64,000 nt of DNA from Desulfurivibrionaceae bacterium (GCA_046484585.1 JAWOIQ010000093.1:909-64908); one strand, 5' to 3'; counted from the first letter of the stretch, positions 11,602-58,812 are shown. Notes: a model not told the origin generated them from the sequence alone. Program-made: numbers and translations.

Positions 11602-11657
11602 TATACCTACAGGGCATAAGTTTCGTTTGAGCAGACAAGCTGCTCAACTCAGCTTTA
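11602..11657 (+). repeat. R1 dispersed repeat, copy 1 (hairpin core GAGCAG-ACAAG-CTGCTC)
   Basis: TATACCTACAGGGCATAAGTTTCGTTTGAGCAGACAAGCTGCTCAACTCAGCTTTA. Starts 10 nt after the cooS stop and ends 29 nt before ATG 11687. Confidence 0.85.
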
Positions 11658-11686
11658 ATAATTGAATTCAAGGATACAGATATCAG

Positions 11687-14320
11687 ATGAAATCGGGTAG
11701 CCGTCTAGAACGGATTCTAAATTCAGGTGGTTTTGCCGTGACCGGCGAACTTGGGCCGCCGAAGAGTGGTGATCCGGAAGTTGTTCGAGAGAAGGCGCGT
11801 CTTCTTAAGGGTAATGTCGATGCCGTCAATATAACCGATTGCCAGACCGCTATTGTCAGGATGTCCAGCATCGGGGCCGGACTGATCACCCTCTCCGAGG
11901 GGGTCGAACCGGTAATTCAGATGACCTGCCGGGACCGGAACCGAATCGGCATGCAGAGCGATATCCTAGGGGCCGCCGCCCTGGGTCTGAAAAATCTGCT
12001 TTGTCTGACCGGCGATCACCAGAAATTCGGCAACCATCCCGGCGCCAAAGGGGTCTTCGACATGGACTCTATCCAGCTTTTGGGGATGGTCAGGGAGATG
12101 CGGGATGAAAAAAGGTTTCAGAGCGGCGACGAAATCAAAAACCACGAACCCCGGCTGTTTTTAGGGGCCGCCGCCAATCCCTTTGCCGAACCGGCCGACT
12201 ACCGGGCAGCCCGCCTGGGCAAGAAAGTTGCCAACGGAGCCGATTTCATCCAGACCCAGATCGTCTACAACGTCGATAAATTCAGGCAGTTCATGAAAAT
12301 GGTCTGCGATCTCGGTATCGACGAAAATGTTCACATCCTTGCCGGGGTTACGCCGCCCCGTTCCATCGGCATGGCCCGCTACATGAAAAATTTCGTCCCC
12401 GGCATGGATGTGCCGGACGAGGTTATCGACCGCCTCCGGGGGGCCGCCGACAAGGAGGATGAAGGCATTAATATTTGTGTCGACATTATCAACCAGGTCA
12501 AGGAGATCAAGGGCATCTCCGGCGTCCATATCATGGCCATCGAATGGGAAAGCGCGGTACCGGAGATCGTCAAACGGGCCGGTCTCGCCGATCGTCCGCG
12601 CTTTGACGATGAGCTTGCCACGGTGAGCCCACCCCGGGATACGCAAGTAGTTATCGGTGAAGCGAAAACCGCCGAGTCAGCCGAAGATAAAGACGAGATT
12701 ATTGCGGCGGCCAGGATCGAGGCGGAGAAGTTGATCGCCGAAGCCAGGGAAGAGGTCGCCAGAATGCGGACCCAAGCCGCTTCGACCGCCACCCCGACAA
12801 CCACTGTTCACGAAAGTATTGAATCAGACGATGCAGGAGAACACGAAATGAACGAAAGAGAACGTCAGATGGCTCTTGAAACGGTCCGGACCGGCCTTGA
12901 TGCCCTTAAAAAGTCCTTCGGACTGTCCAATGATCAATTTGAGGCCCTGGTTAAATTTGCCACTACCGAAGCTATTTTAATGAAGGAACCGCCGACCGGC
13001 GCCGCCGCAGCTTCGGCTCCTGCCACGCCGGCGAAACCGGCCGCTGCCGCGGAAACAACTCCGGCTGCGTCTGCCCGTCCTGCTCAGCCTGCTCCCGCGG
13101 TTGACACGGCCAAGGAAGAGGAAGCCAAGGCAGCTGCCGAATCCGCCAGAAAGGCCGAACTTGAGAAGAAAGCGGTGGAGGAAGCGGCCAGGAAGGCAGA
13201 GCTGGAGAAACAGGCTGCTGCCGAAACCGTTCCGCCGAAAGAGGTTAAAAAGGAAGCTGAACCTTCCGAGGCCAAGAAGAGCGCCGCCAAGCCCTCGGTC
13301 AAAAAGACCGGCGGCGGCGAAGCAGCCGGGGCTACCGCCCTGGCCCATGAGGAAACTCCCCTGGCCGAGCGTTCCACCAAGGTTGCCGAAGATAATTACA
13401 AAGTCAAATACACCGGCAAGATCAGGGAGACCGTTCTCGGCAGCGGTGACCATACCGTCAAGGTCGGCGGCGCCGATACCATGCCGTTCCAGCTCTATGA
13501 AGGCGAGATGCCGAACAAGCCCCTGATCGCCATGGACATTCTCGACTATGAGCCCGATGAATGGCCCGAGACCCTGACCCGCCATTTTGCCGGAGTGATG
13601 GACAACCCCCTGAACTGGGCCCGGAAATGCATCGATGATTATCAGGCCGAAGCCATCTGCCTGTCGCTGATGAGCACCGACCCCAACGGTATGAACCGCT
13701 CCGCCGCCGATGCGGCGAAAATCGCCGCCGAGGTCGTGAATAATATTGAAGTGCCCCTGATCCTCTGGGGCTGTGGCAACAGTGACAAGGATACCGAAAC
13801 CCTGCGGGAGATCACCTCCCTGGTCGGCGACAAGAAGGTCTGCCTGGCGCCGCTGTCCGATGCGAACTATCGCTCGATCGGCGCGACCGCCATGGCCTTT
13901 CATCACCCGATGGTTGCCGCTTCTCCCATTGACGTAAACCTTGCCAAGCAGTTGAATATTCTCCTCGAAAATCTCGGGGTTTCCCTTGATTCGGTCCTGA
14001 TCGATCCGTCCATCGGCGCCCTCGGTTACGGCATTGAATATACTTATTCGGTTATGGAACGGATTCGGCTGGCGGCAATGACCCAGCAGGACGAGAAACT
14101 GCAGGTGCCCTTTATCTGCAATCTCGGGCGCGAGGTCTGGAAGGCCAAGGAAACCAAATTGCCGACCGACGAGCTTCTCGGCGATCAAGAACGACGCGGC
14201 GTTCTGATGGAAGCCATGACCGCTTCCTGCATGCTGGTTGCCGGCGGAGAGGTTCTGATCATGCGGCATCCGCAGGCCATCGCGCTCACCAAGTCCCTGA
14301 TTGACGGACTTGTTGATTAA
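11687..14320 (+). CDS. metF/acsD: fusion protein: MetF-type methylene-THF reductase (N-term), A/P/E/K-rich linker, corrinoid Fe-S protein small subunit AcsD/CdhD (C-term)
   Basis: 877 aa uninterrupted ORF. Residues 1-~300 are MTHFR-family (LTGDH, ADFIQTQIVYN). Residues ~300-560 are low complexity with a duplicated ARKAELEK. Residues ~565-877 are the CdhD/AcsD TIM barrel (LILWGCGN, IDPSIGALGYGIEYTYS). Confidence 0.8.
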   Translation: MKSGSRLERILNSGGFAVTGELGPPKSGDPEVVREKARLLKGNVDAVNITDCQTAIVRMSSIGAGLITLSEGVEPVIQMTCRDRNRIGMQSDILGAAALGLKNLLCLTGDHQKFGNHPGAKGVFDMDSIQLLGMVREMRDEKRFQSGDEIKNHEPRLFLGAAANPFAEPADYRAARLGKKVANGADFIQTQIVYNVDKFRQFMKMVCDLGIDENVHILAGVTPPRSIGMARYMKNFVPGMDVPDEVIDRLRGAADKEDEGINICVDIINQVKEIKGISGVHIMAIEWESAVPEIVKRAGLADRPRFDDELATVSPPRDTQVVIGEAKTAESAEDKDEIIAAARIEAEKLIAEAREEVARMRTQAASTATPTTTVHESIESDDAGEHEMNERERQMALETVRTGLDALKKSFGLSNDQFEALVKFATTEAILMKEPPTGAAAASAPATPAKPAAAAETTPAASARPAQPAPAVDTAKEEEAKAAAESARKAELEKKAVEEAARKAELEKQAAAETVPPKEVKKEAEPSEAKKSAAKPSVKKTGGGEAAGATALAHEETPLAERSTKVAEDNYKVKYTGKIRETVLGSGDHTVKVGGADTMPFQLYEGEMPNKPLIAMDILDYEPDEWPETLTRHFAGVMDNPLNWARKCIDDYQAEAICLSLMSTDPNGMNRSAADAAKIAAEVVNNIEVPLILWGCGNSDKDTETLREITSLVGDKKVCLAPLSDANYRSIGATAMAFHHPMVAASPIDVNLAKQLNILLENLGVSLDSVLIDPSIGALGYGIEYTYSVMERIRLAAMTQQDEKLQVPFICNLGREVWKAKETKLPTDELLGDQERRGVLMEAMTASCMLVAGGEVLIMRHPQAIALTKSLIDGLVD

Positions 14321-14387
14321 ATAGATTAGCGTGCAACCTGGTTTAGCACCGCAATGCCCAAATCATAAAAATATCAGGAGTTAAAAA

Positions 14388-16592: not shown

Positions 16593-16594
16593 TG

Positions 16595-16702
16595 GTAACC
16601 GCTCAGCAGCACCACATCTTTGGACAAGCTGCCCGGCTTACGTACACGAGGTACGCGGCGCCGGTCCGCTTGTCCAAATCTGCACCACTGCTGAACGGTT
16701 AC
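16595..16702 (+). other. 108 nt extended imperfect hairpin in the acsB-acsC spacer
   Basis: Outer arms 16595-16609 and 16688-16702 pair 15 bp with 1 mismatch. Inner arms 16619-16629 and 16668-16678 pair 11 bp perfectly. The apical part has CCGGC/GCCGG and CGTAC/GTACG pairings. Confidence 0.6.
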
Positions 16703-16807
16703 AGTCTGGTGGTTTTGGATACTTTGGTGACCGCCCCGGTGAACGGTTATGTTTAACGGATTAAATCAAACAAATTTTCAAGTTATATATGATGGAGGAA
16801 TAGAACG

Positions 16808-18163: not shown

Positions 18164-18292
18164 TTCCGCCTCTGTTTGGCTTAAGGGGGATGATGTATTA
18201 ATTTATAGTTTTACCCCGTCGGATTCGGCAAGACCGTTTTCTCCGCCTTAAAAATCTCGGGCTGGAAACTCCCGGCTCTGATAACCCGGATT

Positions 18293-26249: not shown

Positions 26250-26313
26250 ATTCTGGATTATATCCGCTGGGCACCTCAAGGGTTCTGTTCAATCCTCCCT
26301 TGAGGAAGGGCAT

Positions 26314-26369
26314 TTGCTTCGCGGCACATAAGTTTCGTACGAGCAGACCAGCTTCTCAACTCATTTTTA
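26314..26369 (+). repeat. R1 dispersed repeat, copy 2 (shortened left part)
   Basis: TTGCTTCGCGGCACATAAGTTTCGTACGAGCAGACCAGCTTCTCAACTCATTTTTA. Ends 17 nt before ATG 26387. Confidence 0.8.
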
Positions 26370-26386
26370 TGGCAGGTGTTTCGTAA

Positions 26387-27853: not shown

Positions 27854-28111
27854 CTAGAAACCTAGCTCTCCATCTTCAATTTGTAATGCTTCAGAAAGGG
27901 CTAATGCATTTCGGAGCATAAATGAACCGTAAGCGGTAGCCAGCTCAAGTAAGTGTTCGGCAGCGCCTGGGCTCCATTCTCCTTTGCTGACAAGTAAATC
28001 CATAATCTCGCCATCTGCGAATTTCGATCGCTCCGATATTTTGCTCACTGATTGTTTGAGCAAAGTATGGTACTCGTCGATAAGGCCATTAATCTCAGTA
28101 CATGTATTCAT
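27854..28111 (-). CDS. hypothetical protein (85 aa), no recognisable domain
   Basis: ORF lies 23 nt downstream of the HNH_2 gene on the same strand and is AT-rich like its neighbours. Coding status is inferred from context only. Confidence 0.45.
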   Translation of the reverse strand: MNTCTEINGLIDEYHTLLKQSVSKISERSKFADGEIMDLLVSKGEWSPGAAEHLLELATAYGSFMLRNALALSEALQIEDGELGF

Positions 28112-28134
28112 ATCCGTTCCCTGATGATCGTTTA

Positions 28135-28932
28135 TTATTCATTAAAGACAGTATGTTGGTGCCATTCAAGATAAGATGTCAATGGTAGGAATTTTCGGGG
28201 TTTGATAATTTCCGCGCCATGATAGAAACAAATCAGATCGCTTGTTCTCCTGTCTCCAGAGGTTAGTAGTTTTGATGAGACGGCGACACGCAATTGGTTT
28301 GTTATTGTAAGAAACCCACGATCAAACAAACGATCAAATGTAGCACTTAGGCATAAACCGTTATGTGGATCCGTTCGATGCTCTTCAGAAACACTCCATG
28401 GTATAATGTGGCTCGCCACCAGACATTCTTTAATCCGTAATCCTGTAATACAACATGTATTTTCGTAACTACTGAGAATTGCCTCACGAAAAAATGATTG
28501 ATGGGTACGTGTTTTTTGAGGCGTGATTTTCTCAGATGGTCCTTTGGGGCGATTTACATCAGCCTGAATTTCTTCTTTCGTTATTGTCCTTAAACCCAAC
28601 TCGCCTTTCAACTGCTCAGCTTCTGAGACAAGCTGATTCCAATCTTTATGAAATTCTTCCCATATTTTACGATCCAGTTTGCTGGAGTGAGAAAGCCCAG
28701 ACACTTTTTGTCTGCTAAGCTCTGGATCAAGAGAACCAAAATTACCTAACTTCCTAGCAATGCTTGCCGGTGAACGTTTTATAAGATTAGCGAGTTCAAT
28801 TACATCAGGATTGTTTGCTTTGGTTTTCTTGAAAGGGATACGGCAGTAAAGATCAAACGCGAGAATCAATTCTTCGCGCGTCCAAGGAGCACCATATTTT
28901 TCTGGGTTGCCATGTATAATCATTTGTCTCAA
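28135..28932 (-). CDS. HNH_2-type (COG3183-like) putative restriction endonuclease
   Basis: 265 aa. N-terminal GAPWTREELILAFDLY...SPASIARKLGNFGSLDP. C-terminal CCITGL...ASHIIPWS...DPHNGLCLSATFDRLFDRGFLTI. Confidence 0.75.
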   Translation of the reverse strand: MRQMIIHGNPEKYGAPWTREELILAFDLYCRIPFKKTKANNPDVIELANLIKRSPASIARKLGNFGSLDPELSRQKVSGLSHSSKLDRKIWEEFHKDWNQLVSEAEQLKGELGLRTITKEEIQADVNRPKGPSEKITPQKTRTHQSFFREAILSSYENTCCITGLRIKECLVASHIIPWSVSEEHRTDPHNGLCLSATFDRLFDRGFLTITNQLRVAVSSKLLTSGDRRTSDLICFYHGAEIIKPRKFLPLTSYLEWHQHTVFNE

Positions 28933-30068
28933 TGGCTAATTATATTGGTCAATTTAGTTCTATGTGTTGGGGAGCTGTCGGGAAAACTTTGAAATCGTGC
29001 TGCTTCCCTGTGAGTGATTGGCCTGTGCTGCTCGGGGTGCAAATAGCGGCCTTTTTCAGGTTTATAGAATTCGGTGCGTATCGTAACGGAAGGCCTGTTC
29101 CACCAGAGTCGGCCAAACAAATCAGTTCCTCCTGATTGTTTCCGAATCCAACATTGAGGCGTTAACTCAGGAGCAATACGTTGTAAGTCAAAACGATTCA
29201 TCCCTTCACGAGGTATTGCCCTATATCTTTTCCGACTGAGTTCGGTTGGATTCCTCCCGAAGTGTAAATCCAACGGAGGATCAATATTTCTAATTTCAGT
29301 CCCTTCCGGAGAAGGTAAATCAGCAATAGCGTCTTTTACTGTTTTCCATTTAGGGGGTGTTGACAGATATTCCTCCCTATTGAAGGGAAGTGTTAACGCC
29401 TTTCCGTTGCCATTGGGATTAAAATGAGTTTTTCGGGGTGGAAACAAAATGGATGGATCTGCGAATTTACAACCGATTATGAAAGCTCTGGTACGAGTTT
29501 GAGGAACCCCGTAATCCGCAGCAATTAATTTGTCCTGCCAGACTTGGAAGCCGAGAGACCTTGCTGCTTCGACAATTTCACCATTCTCAAAGGTCCCAAG
29601 CAACTGAGGAACATTCTCCATGACAAAAATTGATGCCTCAGATCTTTCGACAACCTCTAAATAAGGTCGCCACAACTCTTTTCGTGGGTCATTTTCACGA
29701 TTTTTGTTTAAGAGACTGAAACCCTGGCAAGGAGGTCCACCAATTACAACATCAGCTTTGGGGATTTCAATTTTGCTTTGTTTGAGTATTTCGACAATGT
29801 CGCCTGCAACACTATGTGGGCCGAAATTTTCATTGTACGTGTTAACGCAAAATTGATTAAAGTCGTTTGCCCAAACGGATTGAAAAGGTTGTCCAAAAAC
29901 CTCGGAGAAACCTAACGACATCCCGCCCGCCCCTGAAAATAGGTCTATAAGGCGATATCGGTGCGGATTTTGTAGTAGCTCACCTGAGCATCGAGAATGG
30001 TAAGTCGCTTCGTCTTCTTTTAAAATAAAAGATTTGTCTATTTCTATCGTATTTTCAGTTTGATACAT
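28929..30068 (-). CDS. DNA (cytosine-5)-methyltransferase with divergent/short C-terminus
   Basis: 379 aa with motif I DLFSGAGGMSLGF, motif IV GGPPCQGFS, motif VI ENV and motif VIII QTRTRAFIIG. The C-terminus is ...FQSFPDSSPTHRTKLTNIISH* (TNII where GNAV is expected). ATGA overlap with the HNH_2 gene. Confidence 0.85.
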   Translation of the reverse strand: MYQTENTIEIDKSFILKEDEATYHSRCSGELLQNPHRYRLIDLFSGAGGMSLGFSEVFGQPFQSVWANDFNQFCVNTYNENFGPHSVAGDIVEILKQSKIEIPKADVVIGGPPCQGFSLLNKNRENDPRKELWRPYLEVVERSEASIFVMENVPQLLGTFENGEIVEAARSLGFQVWQDKLIAADYGVPQTRTRAFIIGCKFADPSILFPPRKTHFNPNGNGKALTLPFNREEYLSTPPKWKTVKDAIADLPSPEGTEIRNIDPPLDLHFGRNPTELSRKRYRAIPREGMNRFDLQRIAPELTPQCWIRKQSGGTDLFGRLWWNRPSVTIRTEFYKPEKGRYLHPEQHRPITHREAARFQSFPDSSPTHRTKLTNIISH

Positions 30069-30168
30069 GTCTTATGCGCCTTATCGGTTGAATCTTTAAA
30101 AATTGTTTTTGATTCTACCATTTTGGGCAAAATTTTCATCTCAGTAATTCTGGGGTTGGTGGACGAAT

Positions 30169-30235
30169 GCTGAGTTGAGTCCCGCAAAGCGGGACTCGTA
30201 CGAAACTTATGCCCTGTGGGTATAAAGCGAAGCAA
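30169..30235 (-). repeat. R1 dispersed repeat, copy 3 (alternative stem TCCCGC-TTT-GCGGGA)
   Basis: The minus-strand sequence is TTGCTTCGCTTTATACCCACAGGGCATAAGTTTCGTACGAGTCCCGCTTTGCGGGACTCAACTCAGC. Ends 100 nt upstream of the MTase ATG 30068. Confidence 0.85.
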
Positions 30236-30372
30236 CCCGGCATTCGATTGTCTGTTGGGCTAAACCGCCAAGGAGAAGGTTGCTAAGCGCCCAGCAATCT
30301 GCACTGAATACGTAACGGGACGGAGTTAGTTTAACAACTTAATTTCATTAGTATAGGATTGTTCGCTTTTCC

Positions 30373-30687
30373 CTACGCATGATTGGGTAGGGTTGAATGA
30401 AAAAGAGGCTTCACGTTTTTCCATGTTTTTGAGTCATTTGCAGCGTGCCATAAATCATAATTTTTTTGGAGATTCAACCATAACTCAGGAGTAGTACCAA
30501 AAGCTCGCGATAACCGTAAAGCCATGTCCGGCGTGACTGCCCCTCGACAGTTGATAATTTTTGACAATGTCTTCCTGGACACACCAAGAGTTGACGCAAT
30601 ATCCTGTATAGTTACAGATAGTGGCTTTAAATAATCTTCTTTCAAAATAATGCCGGGGTGGGTTGGTTGTCTTTTCATTGTAACCAT
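30373..30687 (-). CDS. higA: HigA-type antitoxin (XRE HTH)
   Basis: Track ORF is 30373..30807. ATG 30687 is preferred because AGGAGG lies 7 nt upstream. HPGIILKEDYLKPLSVTIQDIASTLGVSRKTLSKIIN... Confidence 0.85.
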   Translation of the reverse strand: MVTMKRQPTHPGIILKEDYLKPLSVTIQDIASTLGVSRKTLSKIINCRGAVTPDMALRLSRAFGTTPELWLNLQKNYDLWHAANDSKTWKNVKPLFHSTLPNHA

Positions 30688-30697
30688 GAGACACCTC

Positions 30698-30976
30698 CTA
30701 ATGATAGTCGTCGTAATCGACAATATATGCGTCACCATCTTCGAATTCGAAAATGACACGCCAATTTCCAGAAACTCGGACTGAATATTGATCTTTTCGG
30801 TCACCACTCAGTGCATGCAGGTTTGATCCTGGATAATTCATATCTCTCAAATCATTTGCGGCATTTAGCCGATCCAAAATTCTTTCCAGCTTCCCAGCAT
30901 GTTCAGGTTTTATGCCTTTCTTTGTTCCGGCATAGAAAAACTGCTCAAGCCCTTTATGTTTAAATGATTTGATCAT
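30698..30976 (-). CDS. higB: HigB-type toxin (RelE/ParE superfamily, plasmid-killer family)
   Basis: MIKSFKHKGLEQFF...LHALSGDRKDQYSVRVSGNWRVIFEFEDGDAYIVDYDDYH. The track start 30982 is a TTG; ATG 30976 is preferred. Confidence 0.85.
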   Translation of the reverse strand: MIKSFKHKGLEQFFYAGTKKGIKPEHAGKLERILDRLNAANDLRDMNYPGSNLHALSGDRKDQYSVRVSGNWRVIFEFEDGDAYIVDYDDYH

Positions 30977-30984
30977 GTACAATT

Positions 30985-31001
30985 GTAACCATGCGGGTTA
31001 C
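30985..31001. promoter_or_regulatory. palindrome GTAACC-N5-GGTTAC just upstream of higB (candidate HigA operator)
   Basis: Perfect 6 bp inverted repeat 9 nt upstream of ATG 30976. Confidence 0.3.
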
Positions 31002-31483
31002 ATGCGTCAAATTATTATTTTGAAGCGAACAATTTACTGAGCAGGGCTATATCATCCCAAAAGGGGGAAAATACACAAGAATATCCGCTATTGTCTTAAA
31101 CTCGACTCAGACGCTTCATCTTCTTGTAAACTTTTATATATCAAGAAAGGTTATCCCGACAAGCCATTTAGGGAGAGTAACGATTGCTCTATATTGGCCT
31201 GGAAGACGTGGGAACCAACTGTCCTTCGACAAGCTTAAGATGAGCGGTGGTCGTTCGGTGGGGGTCTGCTTCGACAGTCGGTAGATCGGGTTAAAGCGAA
31301 GCGCAACCCCCTATTGTCCGGAAAGGTTGGGGGTTTGCAAGCTCACCCCAATCTTGTATCTATGCTGCTTGGATGGGCGGGTTCATCTTTCGACGGGTTG
31401 GGGATGCCCGCCGAAAACGGAAGCATGATTCCAGGTTATGCGCGGTAGGTTCTTCTGTTTCTTGGGAAATATTAAAGCGTTGT

Positions 31484-32539
31484 TCAGTTGCGGCCGGCCA
31501 GCTGGCCGCAGGCGGCCGAGATGTCGCTGCCTCGGCTTGATCGGATGAAAACCGTGAAGCCGGCCTTGATCAAAATCTCCTGGAAGGCTTCGCATTTTGC
31601 CCGGGGCGGGCATTTGTAGTCTGAATCGGGACTTTCGTTATAGGGCAGGAGGTTGATCTTGCATCTGATTCCCTTGAGTTGTCTCGCCAGTTGCCGGGCA
31701 TCGGCCTCCGAGTCGTTCACCCCTTCGATCATGATATACTCGAACATGATCATCCGCCGTTTCGGCAAGGGGAAATCCCGGCAGGCCTCAAGGAGTTGCT
31801 CGACCGGATATTTACGGTTGACCGGCATCAGTCTGCTTCTGACCTCGTCGTCGACGCTGTGCAGCGAAACGGCCAGGTTGACCGGGGCTTTTTCCCCCAG
31901 TTCCCGCATCTTCGGGACCAGCCCGCAGGTGGAGACCGTTACCTTGCGGCCCGAGAAATCGAGGCCGCGCTGGTCCATGATGATCTCCAGGGCGGTGATC
32001 AGGTTGTCGAAATTGGCCAGCGGTTCGCCCATCCCCATGAAGACCAGGTTGTTGATGCAGCCGCTTTTCTTGTCGCCGCTGCAGCACATCTCCTCATCCA
32101 TGTCGTTGATCACTGTACAGATCTGGTTGACGATTTCGGCGGGTGTGAGGTTCCTCCTGAAGCCCAAGGTGGCGGTCAGGCAGAAGTCGCAGCCCATGGC
32201 GCAGCCGACCTGGGAGGAAACGCAGAGGGTATTGCGGTCTTCCTCCGGGATCAGGACCGACTCGATAATCTCGCCGTCATCGAGCCGGAAGGCGTATTTG
32301 ACGGTGCCGTCCTCGGATTTTTCCTTTTTGGCAATGGTGTGCAGGCTTATCCTTGCCGTTTCGGAAAGTTTCGCCCGCAGCTCTTTTTTCAGATCGGTCA
32401 TCTGGGAAAATTCGGTGATATCGGGGCGGTACAGCCAGTTGAAGATCTGCCGGCCATGAAATGCCGGCAGCTTAAACTCCCGCTGGAGGTAGTCCAGGAG
32501 CTGCCCCTGGGTGAAATTTTTTAAGTCAACTTTATCCAT
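31484..32539 (-). CDS. rlmN: 23S rRNA/tRNA adenine-C2 methyltransferase (radical SAM)
   Basis: 351 aa with FHGRQIFNWLY, radical SAM CAMGCDFC and a GMGEPL motif. Confidence 0.9.
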   Translation of the reverse strand: MDKVDLKNFTQGQLLDYLQREFKLPAFHGRQIFNWLYRPDITEFSQMTDLKKELRAKLSETARISLHTIAKKEKSEDGTVKYAFRLDDGEIIESVLIPEEDRNTLCVSSQVGCAMGCDFCLTATLGFRRNLTPAEIVNQICTVINDMDEEMCCSGDKKSGCINNLVFMGMGEPLANFDNLITALEIIMDQRGLDFSGRKVTVSTCGLVPKMRELGEKAPVNLAVSLHSVDDEVRSRLMPVNRKYPVEQLLEACRDFPLPKRRMIMFEYIMIEGVNDSEADARQLARQLKGIRCKINLLPYNESPDSDYKCPPRAKCEAFQEILIKAGFTVFIRSSRGSDISAACGQLAGRN

Positions 32540-34518: not shown

Positions 34519-34540
34519 TACTTCCTCCGGGAAAATATAT

Positions 34541-34596
34541 AGCTGAGTTGAGCAGCTTGTCTGCTCGTACGAAAACTTAAGATCTGTGGGTATATA
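34541..34596 (-). repeat. R1 dispersed repeat, copy 4
   Basis: The minus-strand sequence is TATATACCCACAGATCTTAAGTTTTCGTACGAGCAGACAAGCTGCTCAACTCAGCT. Ends 22 nt upstream of the serC ATG, abutting its RBS. Confidence 0.85.
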
Positions 34597-34669
34597 AAAA
34601 ATCGGCTTGCTTCAAAATCGCAAATAAACGTATTAAAATAACCTATAGCGCCTGATTTTGCAAAAAATA

Positions 34670-35465: not shown

Positions 35466-35574
35466 GCGCCTGAAAACAAGTAGTTTTCTGCTTGCTGTTA
35501 TTTCTGAATAGATCAAGATCTCCCTTTTTCTCATCGTTTACCATTTCCTAAATTTCTCGCTTACTTTATATTAT

Positions 35575-35730
35575 CCTGAATCCGTGAGCGTTCGAGAACG
35601 CCGCAGATGCACCGTTATCGGGCGCCCCGCGGGCGGCGGAGTGAATCCATGGCGACCCAGGCAAAAATGATTATCTGATGAAATTACAAATCGATAAAGA
35701 GCAATTTCCCACTAAGCCGTCACGGATTCA
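35575..35730 (+). mobile_element. R3 MITE-like element, copy A (about 156 bp, 13 bp terminal inverted repeats CCTGAATCCGTGA)
   Basis: Left end CCTGAATCCGTGAGCGTTCGAGAAC, right end GCCGTCACGGATTCA. Collinear with 44836-45055. No coding capacity. Confidence 0.7.
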
Positions 35731-36710
35731 TGATGATTGCAATCCCGGGTAGGGCAAAACAGCGTCTGGTGGCGATAGTCGGCCCAACGGCGGTAGGGAA
35801 AACCGATCTGGTTCTTCGGCTTGCCGATGAGTTGCACGCGGAGATCGTCAATGTCGACTCGATGCAGGTTTACCGTTTTATGGACATCGGCACGGCCAAG
35901 CCTTCCCGGCAGGAACGGCAGGCAATCCCGCATCATCTCATCGATATCGCGGCTCCGGACGAGGAGTATAACGTTTGCCGTTACATGGATGACGCCGAAC
36001 GGGCCTGCGCCGATATATCCTCCCGCAGCAAAGTACCGTTACTTACCGGCGGCACCGGTCTCTATCTGAAGGGATTCCAGGAGGGCGTGTTCAGCCTGGC
36101 AGGCGAGCAACTCCCGGATAAAAATATTGAAGAATCGAAACTCAGAAAAAAACTGGAAAAAGAGCTGGCGGAGAAGGGGAGGGGCCATCTTTTCGATAGA
36201 CTGAAAAAATGCGACAGCGCTTCCGCGGCAAGAATTCACCCCAACGACACATACCGTCTTCTCCGGGCTCTCTTGATTTTCGAACAGACCGGGATTCCCT
36301 GGTCCGTTCATCTTGACCGCCAAAAACAGGAAGCCGAAAAAAAGTCTTTTCAGCGCCGTGAGATTTTTAAAATAGGCCTGATCAGGGATCGCGATCAGCT
36401 TTACGAAAGAATCAATCGGCGAACCGAAAAAATGTTTGAAGAAGGGCTGCTGGAAGAGGTGCAATCCCTTCTTGACCGGGGCTACGGTCCCGATCTTAAG
36501 CCCATGCAGTCAATCGGCTATCGCCATGCCGTAAAGGTGCTGGCCGGGGAGTGGGGCCGGGAAGAAGCGATACAGTTGATGGCCAGGGATACCCGGCGCT
36601 ATGCGAAGCGTCAGGCTACCTGGTTTAAAAAAGACCGGGAAATCAAATGGTTTAAGCCCCGACAGGGCGCCGAGATCGTGAATTTAATAAACGAATATTT
36701 GAAAGGTTAA
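35730..36710 (+). CDS. miaA: tRNA dimethylallyltransferase
   Basis: 326 aa with P-loop GPTAVGKT, NVDSMQVYRFMDIGTAKP, and QSIGYR. The start codon is uncertain: ATG 35730 lies in the R3 end, and an in-frame GTG in LVAIVG is also possible. Confidence 0.9.
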   Translation: MMIAIPGRAKQRLVAIVGPTAVGKTDLVLRLADELHAEIVNVDSMQVYRFMDIGTAKPSRQERQAIPHHLIDIAAPDEEYNVCRYMDDAERACADISSRSKVPLLTGGTGLYLKGFQEGVFSLAGEQLPDKNIEESKLRKKLEKELAEKGRGHLFDRLKKCDSASAARIHPNDTYRLLRALLIFEQTGIPWSVHLDRQKQEAEKKSFQRREIFKIGLIRDRDQLYERINRRTEKMFEEGLLEEVQSLLDRGYGPDLKPMQSIGYRHAVKVLAGEWGREEAIQLMARDTRRYAKRQATWFKKDREIKWFKPRQGAEIVNLINEYLKG

Positions 36711-44467: not shown

Positions 44468-44534
44468 GGCTGCTCCTTCTAACAAGTGCCCGTCCATAAA
44501 TGGTCTTTTTGCCCGATAACTTCGTCGCTGCAGA

Positions 44535-44578
44535 GTCGGAAAGTGCTCACGTACCAAAGTACGTTGCGCTTTTCCGAC
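44535..44578. other. 44 nt extended hairpin upstream of the FHA/sigma-54 activator gene
   Basis: GTCGGAAAGTGC..ACGTAC [CAAA] GTACGT..GCGCTTTTCCGAC. A 12 bp outer helix with one bulged T, plus a 6 bp inner helix. Confidence 0.5.
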
Positions 44579-44835
44579 ATCCTTGCTTCTCGTTCTCGGA
44601 CAAAAATCCTCATTTCTGGACAGACACTAACTGATACCAGAAACGACCCGGCAATACTACTAATCAAAGATAGGAATAAAGCATAATTACCCGTCAAAAT
44701 CAATATTAACCGTCACCCTGGAACGGAAATCTGGCTAACCACCCGGTTAACATCGGCCAGACATCAAAGGCCACGAGGATTATTCTCGGCACAACGACAA
44801 GCCCCCGCCTTTTTCTCCGCCATTATTTTTTTCAT

Positions 44836-45055
44836 CCTGAATCCGTGAGCGTTCGAGAACGGTGCAGATGCAAGGCGGCAACGATGTTGATAATACTAAT
44901 GGTATATCAACGAGTTGCCAACACGGCAGATGCGCCGTTATCGGGCGCCCCGCAGGGCGGCGGGGTGAACCATGTCAATCCAGGGAAAAACGATTATCTA
45001 ATGCAATTACAAACTGATAAAGTGAAATTCACCACGAAGCCGTCACGGATTCAGG
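44836..45055 (+). mobile_element. R3 MITE-like element, copy B (220 bp) carrying a nested 54 bp insertion
   Basis: Same TIRs as copy A (CCTGAATCCGTGA / TCACGGATTCAGG) and collinear with copy A except for the insertion at 44872-44925. Confidence 0.75.
44872..44925 (+). mobile_element. 54 bp hairpin mini-element nested in R3 copy B, flanked by 8 bp direct duplication GCAGATGC
   Basis: GCAGATGC occurs at 44864-44871 and 44926-44933 but only once in copy A. Insert ends are GGCAACGATGTTGATA ... TATCAACGAGTTGCC (imperfect inverted repeat). Confidence 0.65.
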
Positions 45056-45151
45056 TTCATGATCAGGGATTGCCTGTTCTCCTGGTAATCGTCGCGAATA
45101 TCCTTTTCGGTATAGCCGAAACAATAACAAACAAGAGCATTATCCATGGTG

Positions 45152-49250: not shown

Positions 49251-49363
49251 TATTCAAATCAGCCAGGCGGAGGGAAACAGCACCTTTGCTCCTGCAAATG
49301 CGGCGTCACCGCGATAAAGATATAAATAATGCTATAACATATTGTCCGTGAAGTTCGGTAAAA

Positions 49364-49589
49364 TTTGATGGCGTCGCAAAAAGTCAAAAACCCTTCCTTC
49401 GACAGGCTCAGGATGAGTGGGGTAGCTTGCAGGCCTAGGGTGAGCGGAGCAACTTATACCCACAGGGCTTAAGTTTTCCTACGAGCAGACAAGCTGCTAA
49501 ACTCAGCTTTATTGATTTACCGGTCGTGCCGGGCTTGTCGAAGTATGTTCCCCTGATCTTTGCCTGACTTTTTTGCGAAAACTTATCAA
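49364..49589 (+). mobile_element. R2 MITE-like element (226 bp) with TIR TTTGATGGCGTCGCAAAAAGTC, enclosing R1 copy 5 (49455-49511)
   Basis: Left end TTTGATGGCGTCGCAAAAAGTC, right end GACTTTTTTGCGAAAACTTATCAA. Internal TTCGACAGGCTCAGGATGAGTGG module. R1 core TATACCCACAGGGCTTAAGTTTTCCTACGAGCAGACAAGCTGCTAAACTCAGCTTTA. Confidence 0.7.
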
Positions 49590-49725
49590 TTTTCAGGTTG
49601 AGATGTTTTTCCTCTACCCCTAAACTAATAGACAGGCACTCCCAATAAAACCACTCAAGGGGATTGAACCAGGACCGTGGTATTATCAATATAGTTGCCA
49701 CCTTGCACCCGCATCATTCCCGAAT

Positions 49726-49739
49726 GCTCACGGATTCAG
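49726..49739 (-). repeat. solo R3 terminal repeat (GCTCACGGATTCAG)
   Basis: Matches the R3 right end. Lies 6 nt upstream of ATG 49746. Confidence 0.5.
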
Positions 49740-49745
49740 TAAATC

Positions 49746-50720
49746 ATGAGAGAAAAAACAATGAACAGGGAACATCCCCCGATCAAAATCGGAATCAGCT
49801 CCTGTCTTCTGGGAGAGAAGGTACGCTATGACGGCGGCCATCAGCATGACCGGCTGATAACCGACCTCCTGGGCAGGTTTCTGGAATTCATTCCGGTCTG
49901 CCCCGAAGTGGAATGCGGTCTCGGCACCCCGCGGGAGGCCATGCATCTGGTCGGCAATCCGGACGATCCACGCCTGGTAACGATAAAAACCGGAATAGAC
50001 CATACCAGGCGAATACGGGAGTGGGCCGTCCGGAAAGTCGGGGATCTTGAAAAGGAGGGGCTGCACGGTTTTATCTTCAAGAGCAAGTCGCCCTCCAGCG
50101 GCATGGAACGGGTCAAGGTGTACGGGCATGGCCGGACGGTCCATCATAACGGGGTCGGCATTTTCGCCCGGGCCTTTATGGAGCACTTCCCCCTGCTGCC
50201 GGTCGAGGAGGACGGACGACTCCATGATAGCGCCCTGCGCGAGAACTTCATCGAGGCGATCTTCGCTTGCCGGCGCTGGCGCGAACTGCGGGCCGGCCCG
50301 AAGCGTCTCGGCCGCCTGGTCGACTTTCATACCGATCATAAGCTGCAGGTCATGGCCCACAGTGTCAGCCATTACCGGGAAATGGGCAAGCTGGTCGCCC
50401 GGGGCAGGGAGCTGCCGATCGACGATTTGCTCGACAGCTATGAAAAACTGCTGATGGAAGCCCTACGCTTAAAGCCCACGGTCAAGAAGCATGTCAATGT
50501 CCTGCAGCACATGGCCGGCTACTTCAAGAAACAGCTGACCGCCGCTGAAAAACAGGAATTGCAGGAGATCATCGAACAATACCGCCGGGAGCTGGTGCCG
50601 CTGATCGTGCCGGTCACCCTGATCAACCACTATGTCCGCAAGTACCGCGCCGATTACCTGGCCCGGCAGCATTACCTGAGCCCCCACCCCCTCGAACTTA
50701 AACTGCGCAACCACGCCTGA
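49746..50720 (+). CDS. DUF523 + DUF1722 (YbgA-like) protein
   Basis: 324 aa. IGISSCLLGEKVRYDGG (DUF523), and a C-terminal half with HYRELMA-type helices (DUF1722). ATG 49761 is an alternative start. Confidence 0.75.
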   Translation: MREKTMNREHPPIKIGISSCLLGEKVRYDGGHQHDRLITDLLGRFLEFIPVCPEVECGLGTPREAMHLVGNPDDPRLVTIKTGIDHTRRIREWAVRKVGDLEKEGLHGFIFKSKSPSSGMERVKVYGHGRTVHHNGVGIFARAFMEHFPLLPVEEDGRLHDSALRENFIEAIFACRRWRELRAGPKRLGRLVDFHTDHKLQVMAHSVSHYREMGKLVARGRELPIDDLLDSYEKLLMEALRLKPTVKKHVNVLQHMAGYFKKQLTAAEKQELQEIIEQYRRELVPLIVPVTLINHYVRKYRADYLARQHYLSPHPLELKLRNHA

Positions 50721-53362: not shown

Positions 53363-53557
53363 AATTTGATCTGTTTTACTTTGACTTTCAATATCCTCAT
53401 CACGGTATGATTTTAAAAACAGAAATTGTTTATTATACGGTTATGGCTTTCTTCACCAAAGCCACTGGAAGCGTGAAATCCGTGCTAAAAACCTGGAGCA
53501 ACCTGAGGGTGCGTTTAGGCCCTGATTTATAAATGATTAGTCAAATTATCGGGAGAA

Positions 53558-54010
53558 ATGATCATGAAAAGCACAGAAACAGACAGAGTCCGGGCGCATA
53601 CTTCTGGAGAAATCAATCGCCAGATCGATCAGGAGACAGATGTTCGGGTGCGAAAATATTCCCAATTAAGCCCTGATGACATTACCCGCCGCATTGAAGC
53701 ACTGGATCGTGAATGGGATATGGAAAGGACCCTCGAAACCAACGCTTCCGTGTTTGGATTCACCGGGCTGGTCCTCGGCCTGACGCATAGCAAGAAGTGG
53801 TTGATGGTGCCGGGTCTAGTTTTATCATTCCTGTTCCAGCATGCGGTGCAGGGCTGGTGTCCGCCTGTCCCTGTCTTCCGTAGGCTGGGAGTGCGCACCC
53901 GTAGGGAAATAGATCGGGAGAAATACGCTTTAAAAGTCTTGCGGGGCGATCTGGATATCAAGAAGGCATTGCCGCGTGCCGAATCGGCCTTGAAGTCGGT
54001 GGATGCTTAA
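53558..54010 (+). CDS. DUF2892 (YgaP-like) membrane protein
   Basis: 150 aa with two TM helices and the motif QGWCP. Confidence 0.65.
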   Translation: MIMKSTETDRVRAHTSGEINRQIDQETDVRVRKYSQLSPDDITRRIEALDREWDMERTLETNASVFGFTGLVLGLTHSKKWLMVPGLVLSFLFQHAVQGWCPPVPVFRRLGVRTRREIDREKYALKVLRGDLDIKKALPRAESALKSVDA

Positions 54011-54097
54011 AAGACTGTAGTCAGGGGGGGGGAAAGAACTTTTGGGTTGCAAAAATACGCCACGACGCGGTAAATCGGGTTGCCATGCCTCTTTTGG

Positions 54098-54120
54098 GTG
54101 CTTTTTGCGACGCCATCAAA
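54098..54120 (-). repeat. solo R2 terminal repeat
   Basis: GTGCTTTTTGCGACGCCATCAAA is the reverse complement of TTTGATGGCGTCGCAAAAAGCAC. Confidence 0.6.
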
Positions 54121-54150
54121 TAAAGCGAAAGGGGCACTGAGGAGCTGTTC

Positions 54151-55740: not shown

Positions 55741-55758
55741 CCGTATAGCTGACACATA

Positions 55759-57003
55759 ATGATTATATTTCAGATTTTCCTGATATTAACTTTATTATTT
55801 ATGGCTTTCACCTTGATGCCGTTCTGGCGTTATGAAGCATGGTGGGTGCGAGTCCTTGACTTTCCACGCATGCAGATTTTTTTACTCGGGATGCTCCTCT
55901 TCCTGTTGGAATTGGCCGTCCTCGACCTGTCTCAGCCGGCGACGTGGGGTTTACTAACAGTCATTCTCCTTTGTCTCATTATCCTGACGTGGTGGATTAT
56001 TCCTTATACCCGCTTATATCCGGTCGAAGTTCAGTCTGCCGAAAACGCTGATCCGCGGAACTCCATCGGAATTCTGACTGCCAATGTGTTGACCCCGAAT
56101 CGGAACGTGGATGGTTTGATTGATATTGTGCGAGAGAGCCGGCCCGATGTTTTCGTCACCTTGGAATCCGATGGATGGTGGCAGAGCAAACTGGATGTCC
56201 TGGAATCCGAATATCGTTACACAATTAAATATCCCCTTGATAACCTTTATGGGATGCATATGTACTCAAAACTGCCCATCTCGGAGAGCCGCATTGAATT
56301 TCTGGTAGAAGACGACGTGCCATCCATACACACGACGATCCGCCTTCCCTCGGGTAATAAAATCCGCATTCATTTCCTGCACCCGGCGCCACCCAGCCCG
56401 AATGAAAACGATGGATCGTCTGAGCGGGACGCGGAACTGGTCATTGTCGCCAGAATCGTGGCTGAAAGCGAACTTCCCGAGATTGTTGCCGGCGATCTGA
56501 ACGATGTCGCCTGGTCCGCGACATCCCGGCTGTTCAAAAAGATCAGCGGAATGCTCGACCCGCGGGTCGGACGGGGTATGTACAACACTTTTCATGCGGA
56601 CTACTGGTTTATGCGCTGGCCCCTGGACCATCTTTTTCACAGTAACCACTTCACTTTGAGCCGCATCCAGAGACTGCGCGGCTTCGGATCGGATCACTTT
56701 CCCCTGTTCACAAAGCTGGTTTATGCGGAAGGGCACGAACTGATTCAGGAGGGACTAGAGGCGGATGCAGCTGACCTTGCCTGGGCTGAAAAAAAACTGG
56801 AGACTCAAGGAATCGGAAAAAGCGATATCCCCCCGGGCTTCACCAAGTTGAATGATTCAACAGAAAGCGCCGGTGTCTTTGTAGTCCAGTCTTATCCGGC
56901 GGATAGTCGGCAGAAGGTCGAGAAAGCAGTCATGGAGCAGCGGATCGAAATAAGAGCCTCTCCTGCCGTTCATCAGGGCGATGGAGTCGGCTTCGCTGTA
57001 TGA
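55759..57003 (+). CDS. membrane-anchored endonuclease/exonuclease/phosphatase (EEP) family protein
   Basis: 414 aa with three N-terminal TMs and the EEP motifs VTLESD, GDLNDVAWS and GSDHFPL. The last ~49 codons overlap the convergent HD-GYP gene. Confidence 0.75.
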   Translation: MIIFQIFLILTLLFMAFTLMPFWRYEAWWVRVLDFPRMQIFLLGMLLFLLELAVLDLSQPATWGLLTVILLCLIILTWWIIPYTRLYPVEVQSAENADPRNSIGILTANVLTPNRNVDGLIDIVRESRPDVFVTLESDGWWQSKLDVLESEYRYTIKYPLDNLYGMHMYSKLPISESRIEFLVEDDVPSIHTTIRLPSGNKIRIHFLHPAPPSPNENDGSSERDAELVIVARIVAESELPEIVAGDLNDVAWSATSRLFKKISGMLDPRVGRGMYNTFHADYWFMRWPLDHLFHSNHFTLSRIQRLRGFGSDHFPLFTKLVYAEGHELIQEGLEADAADLAWAEKKLETQGIGKSDIPPGFTKLNDSTESAGVFVVQSYPADSRQKVEKAVMEQRIEIRASPAVHQGDGVGFAV

Positions 57004-57963
57004 TTTGCGGTAGACCCGGTCATGGCAGAGAGCGTCGTAGACATCGGCAATGGCGACGATGCGGGCCGCTTCGGGGATATCTCCCCCCCGAAGGCCGTGG
57101 GGGTAGCCCCTACCGTCCCATCTTTCGTGGTGCGAGAGGGCGATATCGGCCGCCATCTCCAGCAGCGGTATTTTCGACCCGCCGAGGATCGTCGCCCCGA
57201 TCCTGGGGTGTTCCATGATCACCCTGAACTCGTCCCGGGAAAGTCGACAGGGCTTGCGCAGGATCTCGTCGGGAATGCCGATCTTGCCGATATCGTGCAT
57301 GGGAGCGCCGATTCTGATATTGTCGATCGATTCCCGGTCCCAGCCCAGGGCCTCGGCCATCGCCACGCAGTACAGACCGATCCGTTTAATGTGCTCGCCT
57401 GTTTCCCCATCGCGGTAACCAGTCGCGGTGGTCAGCCGCAGGGCGATCTCCTCTTCCCTTTTGCGTACCTCGGCGGTCCGCTTCCGCACGGTTTCCTCGA
57501 GAATTTCCTTATGTCGGCTGCTTTCCAGGACCAGACGCTTTTTTTCAAGAACATTGGCGATATTGATCAGGAATTCGTTCATATTAAAGGGCTTGATGAC
57601 ATACCCGTCGGCACCCAGTTCCAGGGCCTGATCGGCGGTATTCCGGTCGTAGACCGCCGTGGCCATTACCACGGCGAGATCCGGGAAAAGCTCTCTTATC
57701 CCGCCCAGCAGTTCGATTCCGGAAATATCGGGCATCCTGATATCGGAAATCAGCAGATCGTACTCTTTCTGTTCGAATAGCGTGAAGACCTCTTTGCCCT
57801 TCGCGGTATAATCGCAATCGTAGCCATCTGCTTGAAGCCATGCACAGATCACTTCCCCGACCATGAGCTCGTCATCAACGATCAGGATACTGGCTTTGGG
57901 CATCAGGGAGATATCAGAGCGGATATTGACCGGCATTTCATTTTGTTCTTCATTTTCACTCAT
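56857..57963 (-). CDS. response regulator with HD-GYP phosphodiesterase domain
   Basis: 368 aa. REC domain (ILIVDDE, DLLISDIRMPD) and HD-GYP domain (HDIGKIGIPD, HHERWDGRGYP). Confidence 0.9.
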   Translation of the reverse strand: MSENEEQNEMPVNIRSDISLMPKASILIVDDELMVGEVICAWLQADGYDCDYTAKGKEVFTLFEQKEYDLLISDIRMPDISGIELLGGIRELFPDLAVVMATAVYDRNTADQALELGADGYVIKPFNMNEFLINIANVLEKKRLVLESSRHKEILEETVRKRTAEVRKREEEIALRLTTATGYRDGETGEHIKRIGLYCVAMAEALGWDRESIDNIRIGAPMHDIGKIGIPDEILRKPCRLSRDEFRVIMEHPRIGATILGGSKIPLLEMAADIALSHHERWDGRGYPHGLRGGDIPEAARIVAIADVYDALCHDRVYRKSYSEADSIALMNGRRGSYFDPLLHDCFLDLLPTIRRIRLDYKDTGAFC

Positions 57964-58235
57964 AAAAGCTCTCTATAAATTTGATGTTTTCGCCTAATCA
58001 ATTCGTTTGGTGAAGCTTGAAAACCTTGTAAATCTGCATTCTTTCCCCTTGCGAGGCGGAGGGGGTGATTTCTCTGTCGTGATCACGGACAGACAAACAA
58101 ATATTCCAGATTGATAAGGCAAACCGTCTCATAAACGCGCGGATTCAAGTTATTAAACAGTACCAAGACGATGGCGGAAGATTTCTCTGAGGTCTAATGT
58201 GCCGGGTGGTATTCGAAGTTATGCGGCTTCAGTGG

Positions 58236-58388
58236 TGATGGCGTCGCAAAAAGCACCCGCCATAGAATCCGATCTGCTGCGTCATGGCGCATTTTTGCTT
58301 AGGCCATCCCGTTTTTGTCCCACAGGGCATAAGTTTCGTACGAGCAGACAAGCTGCTCAACTCAGCTTTAACTTTTTGCGAACTCGTC
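58236..58388 (+). mobile_element. R2 MITE-like element (153 bp) enclosing R1 copy 6 (58319-58370)
   Basis: Left end TGATGGCGTCGCAAAAAGCAC, right end CTTTTTGCGAACTCGTC. The R1 core is a perfect match to the consensus. Confidence 0.7.
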
Positions 58389-58600
58389 GGTGTTTTTAGA
58401 AAATAACAATTTTATTAAATTATTCAATAAATATGCCATTTCCTACATAAATGTCCAGCCGCTATATTTTGGTTGCGTCGTAAAAAATCCGATCTGCTGC
58501 GTCGTGGGGTATTTTTGCTCCTTCGGCATACCACCTGAATGGCCTCATCTGGCTCACCCCAAGCCGGCTGCCGATTAAAAGATTAAAATTGATCGGCAAT

Positions 58601-58812
58601 ATTTGATGAACTCGCAAAAAGTCAAAAAAAGATGTCATTTCGAACGAATGTGAGAAATCTTGTTCTTTACACCCATAAGTTTCGTTTGCACGCATAAAAG
58701 CAGGCAAGCTGCTCAACTCAGCCTTAACCAATTGATACTATTAAGATTATCCCGTTGGTCGAAATGACTTATGGCAAAGCCGACTTGTTTCGACGCCATC
58801 ATATTTAATGGC
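58601..58812 (+). mobile_element. R2 MITE-like element (212 bp) enclosing R1 copy 7 (58669-58726)
   Basis: Left end ATTTGATGAACTCGCAAAAAGTC, right end GTTTCGACGCCATCAT. The R1 core carries a 12 nt insertion before the hairpin. Confidence 0.65.

Follow-up and report, generated by a model that had tools for sequence, protein, structure and literature searches.

The 64,000-nucleotide stretch of DNA analysed here (hereafter the window; GCA_046484585.1 JAWOIQ010000093.1:909-64908, from a Desulfurivibrionaceae bacterium) covers a Wood-Ljungdahl gene region with a CO dehydrogenase (CODH) gene at 9577-11592 and, at 11687-14320, a gene for a fusion of methylenetetrahydrofolate reductase (MTHFR) and CdhD. 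The spacer between these genes holds one of seven copies of a 54-bp repeat, R1, that is the subject of this work. A covariance model of R1, made from 82 copies of other genomes and run on the window with filters off, returned exactly seven matches with E values of 1.9e-19 to 4.8e-7, the next-best match being at E = 3.4. Two R1 core patterns matched three and five times in the window against an expectation of zero (100 dinucleotide shuffles), and the family was also recovered by a repeat finder. A previous reading of the window, made from the sequence only, had listed seven copies, written out a consensus and described all of them as intergenic. Pattern searches and the covariance model bear out the copies and their positions, the consensus is correct, and open reading frame (ORF) and Pfam context places each copy between genes. 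Judged by synteny and repeats in common with the loci L037, L068, L104 and L077 (loci are referred to by such numbers throughout), the window belongs to a Desulfobulbales-like genome.

The copy between the CODH stop codon (11592) and the start of the fusion gene (11687) is a canonical 54-bp unit at 11598-11658 on the plus strand (83.9 bits, E 1.9e-19), bordered by ATTA on its 5' side and ending in CAGCTTTA. Upstream of a response-regulator gene (26387), the plus-strand copy at 26310-26370 (E 9.5e-11) belongs to a variant subfamily that has the module GCATTTGCTTCGCGGCA in place of hairpin 1 and recurs in L077, L012, L031 and L092. Two copies are on the minus strand. That at 30164-30228 (E 7.4e-11), located according to Pfam between a helix-turn-helix (HTH) gene and a C5 DNA methylase gene, has a wholly different hairpin 2 stem, GAGTCCCGC-TTT-GCGGGACTC, which recurs in L047, L114, L016 and L042; as DNA, this copy folds at -12.5 kcal/mol (z -4.3). 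The other, at 34537-34598 (E 1.1e-13), has a decayed hairpin 1 and a 1-nt insertion; about 18 nt separate its end from the downstream ATG (34518) of a gene for a class-V aminotransferase, and a GGAGGA ribosome-binding site (RBS) lies in this interval. The remaining three copies, all on the plus strand, are each central in a palindromic host repeat of which R1-free copies exist, in agreement with the previous statement that three copies are embedded in larger repeats. The copy at 49451-49512 (E 6.1e-13) is enclosed by arms at 49397-49416 and 49524-49543, with a left module at 49355-49390 (inverted-repeat search and alignment). The copy at 58311-58371 (E 1e-18) occupies the centre of a palindrome at 58236-58392 with arms TCGCAAAAAG and CTTTTTGCGA and is enclosed by an inverted repeat (58244-58253/58372-58381). 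The last copy, 58657-58727 (E 4.8e-7), is the remnant of a long variant in the loop of a palindrome formed by GTCATTTCGA (58634-58643) and TCGAAATGAC (58759-58768), directly after the insertion point TTCTTTA. The copies at 26310 and 58657 are structural variants with different or extra 5' modules and not merely decayed units; the same variants are present in L077, L012 and L031.

Scanning 185,579 species genomes with a pattern in which the hairpin was unconstrained yielded at least 117 R1 loci, and about 150 copies were lined up to define the anatomy of the unit. Its 54 nt comprise a 52-nt body and an apparently duplicated TA, and its parts are, in order, the start (TA)YA, hairpin 1, the linker CATAAGTTTCGTWY, hairpin 2 and the tail AACTCAGCTTTA. 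Hairpin 1 has the form CC(C)-loop-(G)GG with GCAA, AAA, ACA, AGA, ACAA and TTCG as frequent loops, and hairpin 2 reads (TT)GAGCAG-RCRAG-CTGCTC(AA), stretchable to 8 bp as TTGAGCAG/CTGCTCAA. The hairpin core noted from the sequence only is thus real, but its stem of 6-8 bp, (TT)GAGCAG/CTGCTC(AA), is longer than had been written, and the second, 5' hairpin had been overlooked. The linker CATAAGTTTCGT, which joins the hairpins, and the sequence AACTCAGCTTTA after hairpin 2 are nearly invariant.

Hairpin 2 is conserved as a structure rather than as a sequence. Pair 36-44 is A-U in 66, C-G in 10 and G-C in 3 sequences, pair 35-45 has 73 cases of C-G and 3 of U-A, and the covariation score was reached by none of 500 shuffles. 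Pairing amounts to 90%, compared with 18-39% in controls with slid partners, and three unrelated stems are found at this place (GAGCAG/CTGCTC, GAGTCCCGC/GCGGGACTC and GGCCCGA/TCGGGCC). Folded as DNA, both strands form the same two hairpins (z -2.35 and -2.64). Neither strand looks selected because G.T mispairs in hairpin 2 (9 cases) are not favoured over A.C mispairs (14 cases). In a putative outer RNA helix proposed by folding, AAGUU/AGCUU, both sides are invariant, and the frequent CTATA variant disrupts it without compensation. Long variants of 72-110 nt contain one to three additional modules that resemble hairpin 1 (CACCC-loop-GGGCAT); they are located in L031 (5525-5745), L012, L056, L003, L024, L040, L063 and L107. 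Their sequences suggest that the 5' hairpin module can duplicate inside R1, and the window copies at 26310 and 58657 derive from such variants.

R1 is a discrete insertion with defined ends, located immediately 3' of (T)TTA. A repeat of about 230 bp with terminal inverted repeats (TIRs; CCTGAATCCGTGA...TCACGGATTCAGG) occurs with and without R1 and provided the first filled and empty sites. In an alignment of six sequences, two copies in L104 carry R1, whereas L086 and the minus-strand window copy at 44815-45065, our empty reference site, are without it. The empty copies read GTTGATA/TACCATT (the slash marks the insertion point), and the filled ones have exactly 54 nt more, in sense orientation TA-(CACCC...CTCAACTCAGCTT)-TA. 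The second such site is that of the copy at 58657-58727 within the palindrome at 58634-58768, the empty version of which in L114 reads TTCTTTA/AC; a fuller form of this R1 variant is present in L031. Inspection of both sites revealed no inverted similarity between the ends, YACCC... and ...CTCAACTCAGCTT, and thus no TIRs of R1. Either TA (at GTTGATA) or TTA (at TTCTTTA) flanks R1 on both sides; this may be a target duplication but is equally accounted for if an element that itself ends in TTTA was inserted 3' of (T)TTA. Among 93 independent flanks, the 5' side shows T, T and A at frequencies of 0.77, 0.88 and 0.67, whereas past the element's own ...CAGCTTTA the 3' side shows only W and then random sequence. 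From this asymmetric profile we conclude that the target is (T)TTA read on one strand and recreated by the 3' end of R1 itself. In two other comparisons (window with L068, L063 with L037) the junctions were too diverged to give exact boundaries. All nested cases (L104, L063 and the window copies at 49451, 58311 and 58657) have R1 at the centre or in the loop of a host palindrome; R1-free copies of host palindromes lie at 58445-58560 and 54035-54135 in the window and in L114.

The host repeats belong to different families. The repeat of about 230 bp, which has an internal G+C-rich hairpin, is represented in the window at 44823-45055, 35565-35737, 49680-49747 and 61052-61098 and is common to metagenome-assembled genomes (MAGs) of Desulfobulbales (L104, L053, L086, L077), with up to 95% identity; from its sequence it looks like a genuine MITE (miniature inverted-repeat transposable element). 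A second, palindromic family with the modules TGATGGCGTCGCAAAAAG and AATCCGATCTGCTGCGTCRTGGSGYATTTTTGC (49355-49390, 54049-54122, 58236-58299, 58459-58519, 58593-58628) hosts three R1 copies and is probably what had earlier been named R2. Within the Wood-Ljungdahl cluster, an inverted repeat with 43-nt arms (GTAACCGCTCAGCAGCACCACATC...) at 16595-16702 recurs in L069, L114, L063 and L037 with 88-91% identity, and its loop in L063 holds a long R1 variant. R1 with identical flanks (CCGCATCTGCGTTGYTG before and TCAGCCTGCTCATGGGCACC after the element) is found in L021 (minus strand, about 6700-6760), at 4984-5044 of L055 from the same MAG, and in L029 from another MAG; apparently, R1 was inserted first and its host sequence duplicated later.

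The R1 loci listed, at least 117 in number, are spread over about 38 genomes, which belong to distantly related sediment and symbiont bacteria of the Desulfobulbales and Gammaproteobacteria, and several of the loci sit on long contigs. Desulfobulbales carriers include Desulfocapsa, Desulfopila, Desulfurivibrio and Desulfurivibrionaceae; the gammaproteobacterial ones include Candidatus Methylobacter oryzae KRF1, other Methylobacter and Methylococcales, endosymbionts of the tubeworms Lamellibrachia and Escarpia, and a symbiont of a lucinid clam. Signature variants characterise each genome, and copies are slightly closer within a genome than between genomes (7.09 versus 7.98 differences; 12 of 2000 permutations). 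Some copies occupy orthologous sites in related species (L036/L039, L078/L006). No match was found among 72,556 plasmids, and viral contigs gave four matches only. Where R1 units adjoin each other they do so with a period of 54 bp, and all 33 adjacent pairs are head-to-tail, none inverted. Neighbouring units of an array differ at 3.4 positions, compared with 9.0 between units of different loci.

The unit corresponds to 18 codons, and one frame is free of stops on the sense strand in 141 of 151 copies (peptide IPKGHKFRLSRQAAQLSF) and one on the antisense strand in 128 of them (peptide KAELSSLSAQTKLMPFGY). Copies within ORFs are found on either strand. In mnmE of L095, an antisense R1 adds exactly 18 residues to a loop of the G domain, apart from which the protein aligns end to end with the solved structures 3geh and 1xzp. 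R1 units are also present in genes for TamB, GspA (two units) and a DUF6933 protein whose domain is split at the unit. A search of 5.8 billion proteins for the peptides gave 78 matches, mostly short 'hypothetical proteins' read across arrays; the real proteins among them include members of the DsrE, cupin and glyoxalase families.

R1 has discrete ends without inverted similarity, a target that is short and asymmetric, and hairpin pairing kept by compensation beside invariant linkers; it is amplified in many genomes, lies in random orientation to genes and is tolerated in frame within them. Together, these properties make it very probably selfish, non-autonomous mobile DNA of some kind. The suggestion that it is an active or recently active element is likewise supported by discrete insertion, filled and empty sites, amplification in many genomes, nesting and insertions in ORFs. 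The best overall explanation, to which we assign a probability of about 0.6, is a 54-bp non-autonomous mobile element that relies for its copying on an enzyme from another locus of the genome. Such an enzyme would recognise the folded hairpin together with the linkers in single-stranded form, and this would account for the drift of the stem sequence alongside preserved stem pairing and linker sequence; it would insert R1 into exposed (T)TTA sites. Arrays could grow via re-insertion at the TTTA end of R1 itself or via slippage between flanking TTTA repeats. We tentatively propose, at odds that are short of even, that the mover is a single-strand transposase of the HUH/Y1 type (IS200/RayT-like). 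Transposases of the IS608/IS605 and RayT types require a structural hairpin, single-stranded flanks and a T/A-rich 5' target, and no TIRs. HUH/Y1 is preferred because the structure-dependent hairpin of R1, its sequence-specific single-stranded flanks, its lack of TIRs and its insertion 3' of a T/A-rich tetranucleotide match these needs, a comparison that rests partly on published work (PMC3116915, PMC3733652).

Several observations weigh against the mobile-element explanation and its proposed mover. No recurrent transposase family was found among 699 ORFs flanking R1 copies, and between inverted R1 pairs there were CheX-like, outer-membrane and small DUF proteins only, with no transposase-like gene. 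Separated half-sites marking an autonomous parent were likewise not found, all such candidates being decayed or internally deleted copies. The two hairpins of R1 are dissimilar, whereas the ends of IS200/IS605 elements usually bear hairpins that resemble each other. A constraint at the RNA level could be hinted at by the loops GCAA and TTCG of hairpin 1, both classic RNA tetraloops. Non-adjacent copies within one locus have the same orientation in 15 and opposite orientations in 10 cases (p = 0.42, the replication direction of the contigs being unknown) and do not show a replication-strand bias as strong as is typical of IS608-type elements. No population was observed to be polymorphic for an R1 insertion, which would be a sign of present-day activity. 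The conservation of the linkers is overstated, as their 20 invariant positions are partly imposed by the search pattern, and the preference for palindrome loops may in part be an ascertainment effect, only repeated hosts being able to yield empty sites. In about 0.9 Mb of flanking sequence no autonomous insertion sequence (IS) with R1 ends was seen.

In one rival explanation, R1 would be a cis-acting structured RNA that the host has recruited, in a 5' leader or between cistrons, to govern how the downstream gene is translated or how stable its mRNA is. In the window every copy points to the ORF that follows and some stop directly ahead of an RBS, many copies in other genomes adjoin an RBS and ATG, hairpin 2 shows compensatory changes, the loops of hairpin 1 are often GCAA or TTCG, and the unit folds as RNA at -15.4 kcal/mol (z -2.05). 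However, orientation in the window is uninformative because copies in divergent spacers always face a gene, so that only three of the seven count. In a census of 131 copies or arrays from the 117 listed loci, co-directional spacers contained 22 sense and 21 antisense R1, and 13 were in divergent versus 16 in convergent spacers; the orientation of R1 relative to genes is thus random. At the CODH/MTHFR junction of L037, which is orthologous to window 11598-11658, R1 is inverted. Synteny also aligns the next spacer of the operon in the window, 14321-14387, which is without R1, with a spacer of L068 in which a minus-orientation copy abuts the RBS. ORF-internal copies on either strand, the mispair counts and the unrelated functions of downstream genes add to the evidence against an RNA, and Rfam gave no match at the gathering score in the window and none at E <= 10 on two array loci. 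The last result agrees with the earlier statement that R1 matches no known RNA family, but the even orientation, the inverted orthologous junction, the mispairs and the lack of an Rfam match leave the idea of a recruited RNA or DNA structural motif unsupported as a general property. A regulatory RNA role of the family is therefore not supported and we consider it improbable, although single copies beside RBSs could affect expression incidentally. The seven window copies are most likely neutral passengers, and effects of their hairpins on neighbouring mRNAs, be it beside RBSs or between cistrons, would be incidental.

Other forms of mobility or spread have to be weighed as well. TA on both sides of a 52-nt body at the exact filled and empty site, and the small, non-coding and dispersed nature of the copies, are what a classical MITE moved by a TA-duplicating DDE transposase of the IS630/Tc1-mariner type would show, but we attach little probability to this idea: inspection of the ends (YACCC... 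and ...CAGCTT) shows no inverted similarity, TTTA is preferred on the 5' side alone, an asymmetry unlike the palindromic target predicted by symmetric DDE cleavage, adjacent copies are head-to-tail in 33:0 cases, and the flanks contain no IS630-like gene. An element of the repetitive extragenic palindromic (REP) or REPIN type, mobilised by a cognate REP-associated tyrosine transposase (RAYT or RayT), is unlikely though closer to the observations, as R1 is mostly extragenic, has a high copy number and a compensated hairpin, and its hairpin 2 is built like CGTC-type REPs: two A/T pairs begin a stem of 8 bp, the loop has 5 nt, and a short tail follows (PMC3733652). RayT-like genes are present in R1-bearing Methylobacter; the peptide search led to the Methylobacter protein P0036, an annotated transposase that matches the RAYT family NF047646 of NCBIfam at E 3.4e-11, below the curated cutoff, and that is neither recognised by Pfam nor matched by sequence to a solved structure. 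The 117 listed loci contain no RayT gene. The gene of P0036, in L122, is a RayT-like pseudogene (135-722, stop at 576) that has R1 inserted at 322-382, in frame just past the HUH motif, and is flanked at 58-108 and 728-778 by its own palindromes, GGGAAGCTnnAGCTTCCC and GTTCCCAAGCTGGAGCTTGGGAAC, which are unlike R1. This is the layout expected of a REPtron, that is a RayT gene between its own REPs, whose REP family would be unrelated to R1. Because this gene is broken, carries R1 and is flanked by different palindromes, R1 is a passenger there and not the REP of this RayT, the only RayT gene found in the sequence searched for the suggested RAYT link. Moreover, the sequence beside hairpin 2 of R1 is CGTW instead of a GTAG or CGTC tag, and a 54-bp unit that holds two different hairpins is longer than REPs, which measure 14-40 nt (PMC12306157). 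In REPINs the copies are paired in inverted orientation (PMC3116915), an arrangement seen in 0 of 33 adjacent R1 pairs, and REP families rarely form the head-to-tail dimers (PMC3733652) that R1 forms exclusively. REP families are also normally lineage-specific, whereas R1 is common to two phyla. Finally, R1 might spread solely by recombination or slippage as a minisatellite, the dispersed copies being ancient and orthologous. A length divisible by three, head-to-tail arrays of very similar neighbours and some copies at orthologous sites of related species (L036/L039, L078/L006) fit this model, which nevertheless is very improbable given filled and empty sites in unrelated host repeats, copies in hundreds of unrelated contexts in two phyla, and opposite orientations at one orthologous junction.

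Small hairpin repeats such as REPs, Rickettsia palindromic elements (RPEs) and MITEs are common and usually lineage-specific, and for most of them it is unknown how they move. Literature searches with R1 sequence strings returned unrelated primer matches only, and searches with keywords linking the host taxa with repeat elements returned nothing; R1 thus appears to be undescribed, though of a familiar kind of element. It works like REPs, RPEs and MITEs, yet fails their defining features. Mycobacterial interspersed repetitive units (MIRUs) are minisatellites of mycobacteria with units of about 50 bp and a length that is a multiple of three, and they form head-to-tail arrays in intergenic operon spacers, features that R1 shares. 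MIRUs, however, follow the orientation of their operon, and discrete insertions that have empty sites, lie in either orientation and span phyla are not known among them. IS608/IS605 elements have no TIRs, subterminal hairpins, a T/A-rich 5' target and a 3' end resembling the target. By this anatomy, R1 resembles the ends of IS200/IS605 elements and their miniature derivatives, with TTA as the 5' flank of most copies; it differs in having no cognate tnpA among the flanks searched, dissimilar hairpins and no clear strand bias (15:10), and in being far smaller than known derivatives.

With REPs and REPINs of RAYT systems, R1 shares compensated hairpin stems and a mostly extragenic, sometimes intragenic location. 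The handling of REPs is attributed to an HUH Y1 enzyme that would act on them in the form of single-stranded hairpins, and CGTC-type REPs also occur without a linked transposase (PMC3733652, PMC3116915). By contrast, R1 is longer than the single tagged palindrome of 14-40 nt that defines REPs, has neither a GTAG or CGTC tag nor inverted doublets, does not flank a cognate RayT gene (REPtron) in the sequence searched, and comes with a second hairpin, long invariant linkers, exclusively head-to-tail arrays and an insertion site defined as TA/(T)TTA. Its sequence is the same in two phyla, and the RayT examined bears other REPs. RPEs are likewise small selfish repeats without a transposase of their own that are found between genes and also in frame within them, where they are translated as extra segments of otherwise intact proteins (PMC10969869, PMC3733652); for R1, such in-frame insertions were found in mnmE and the genes for TamB, GspA, DUF6933, DsrE, cupin and glyoxalase proteins. 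RPEs, however, are palindromic units of about 100-150 bp that are confined to Rickettsia and relatives (families 1-10 in Rickettsia), whereas the 54-bp R1 has two dissimilar hairpins, forms head-to-tail arrays, resides in free-living and symbiotic Desulfobulbales and Gammaproteobacteria and has no sequence similarity to them. Bacterial MITEs (Correia, ERIC, BOX, Nezha and others) are non-autonomous, dispersed, able to nest, and capable of co-transcription and of in-frame fusions (PMC10969869), but are defined by TIRs and a related IS, neither of which is seen in R1; the label 'MITE-like' is therefore right only in a loose sense. Inspection also eliminated a sigma-54 promoter (GGGCAT-N5-TCGT; the -12 GC is missing and orientation is random) and an integron attC site (no GTTRRRY core at the R1 ends). 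A CsrA sponge, a type III antitoxin, a CRISPR-like array and known ribozymes were rejected for want of GGA loops, spacers and Rfam matches.

Some features of the window are independent of R1 as a family. The region at 28000-32000 has a G+C content of 0.448 compared with 0.51-0.58 elsewhere and encodes a C5 cytosine DNA methylase (28929-30068) together with an HTH_3 protein (30373-30807); possibly it is a restriction-modification islet acquired from a foreign source. The fusion gene at 11687-14320, directly after the CODH gene (Prismane family), encodes 877 amino acids with a methylenetetrahydrofolate reductase domain (residues 6-299) and a CdhD domain (582-823), CdhD being the delta subunit of CO dehydrogenase/acetyl-CoA synthase. 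A segment of 143 nt at 44485-44627 is 92% identical to L056 357-499 (Desulfobacterales LH_M18), far above the similarity of neighbouring coding sequence.

For the Wood-Ljungdahl genes of this bacterium, our findings mean that the adjacent R1 repeats are not to be taken as regulatory signals short of experiment. In genome annotation, R1 accounts for many spurious 'hypothetical proteins' and for odd inserts of 18 residues. As a model, R1 offers a very small, sharply defined unit of 54 bp with known ends and target, clear in-frame insertions into conserved proteins outside Rickettsia and, with the same sequence in two phyla, a mobilising gene that should be findable by phyletic profiling. It is tempting to speculate, as a rather doubtful extension of the mobile-element explanation, that R1 stands for a class of ultra-small transposable units not described before, which have a single recognition hairpin and invariant single-stranded linkers but lack TIRs. 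Its enzyme would have crossed between Thermodesulfobacteriota and Gammaproteobacteria of redox-interface habitats and prefer exposed palindrome loops, and the unit, having 18 stop-free codons in one frame per strand, would seed peptide inserts in core proteins such as MnmE and TamB. If this were true, R1 would parallel, outside the rickettsiae and in free-living hosts, what RPEs do there, and would provide a tractable, sequence-defined substrate.

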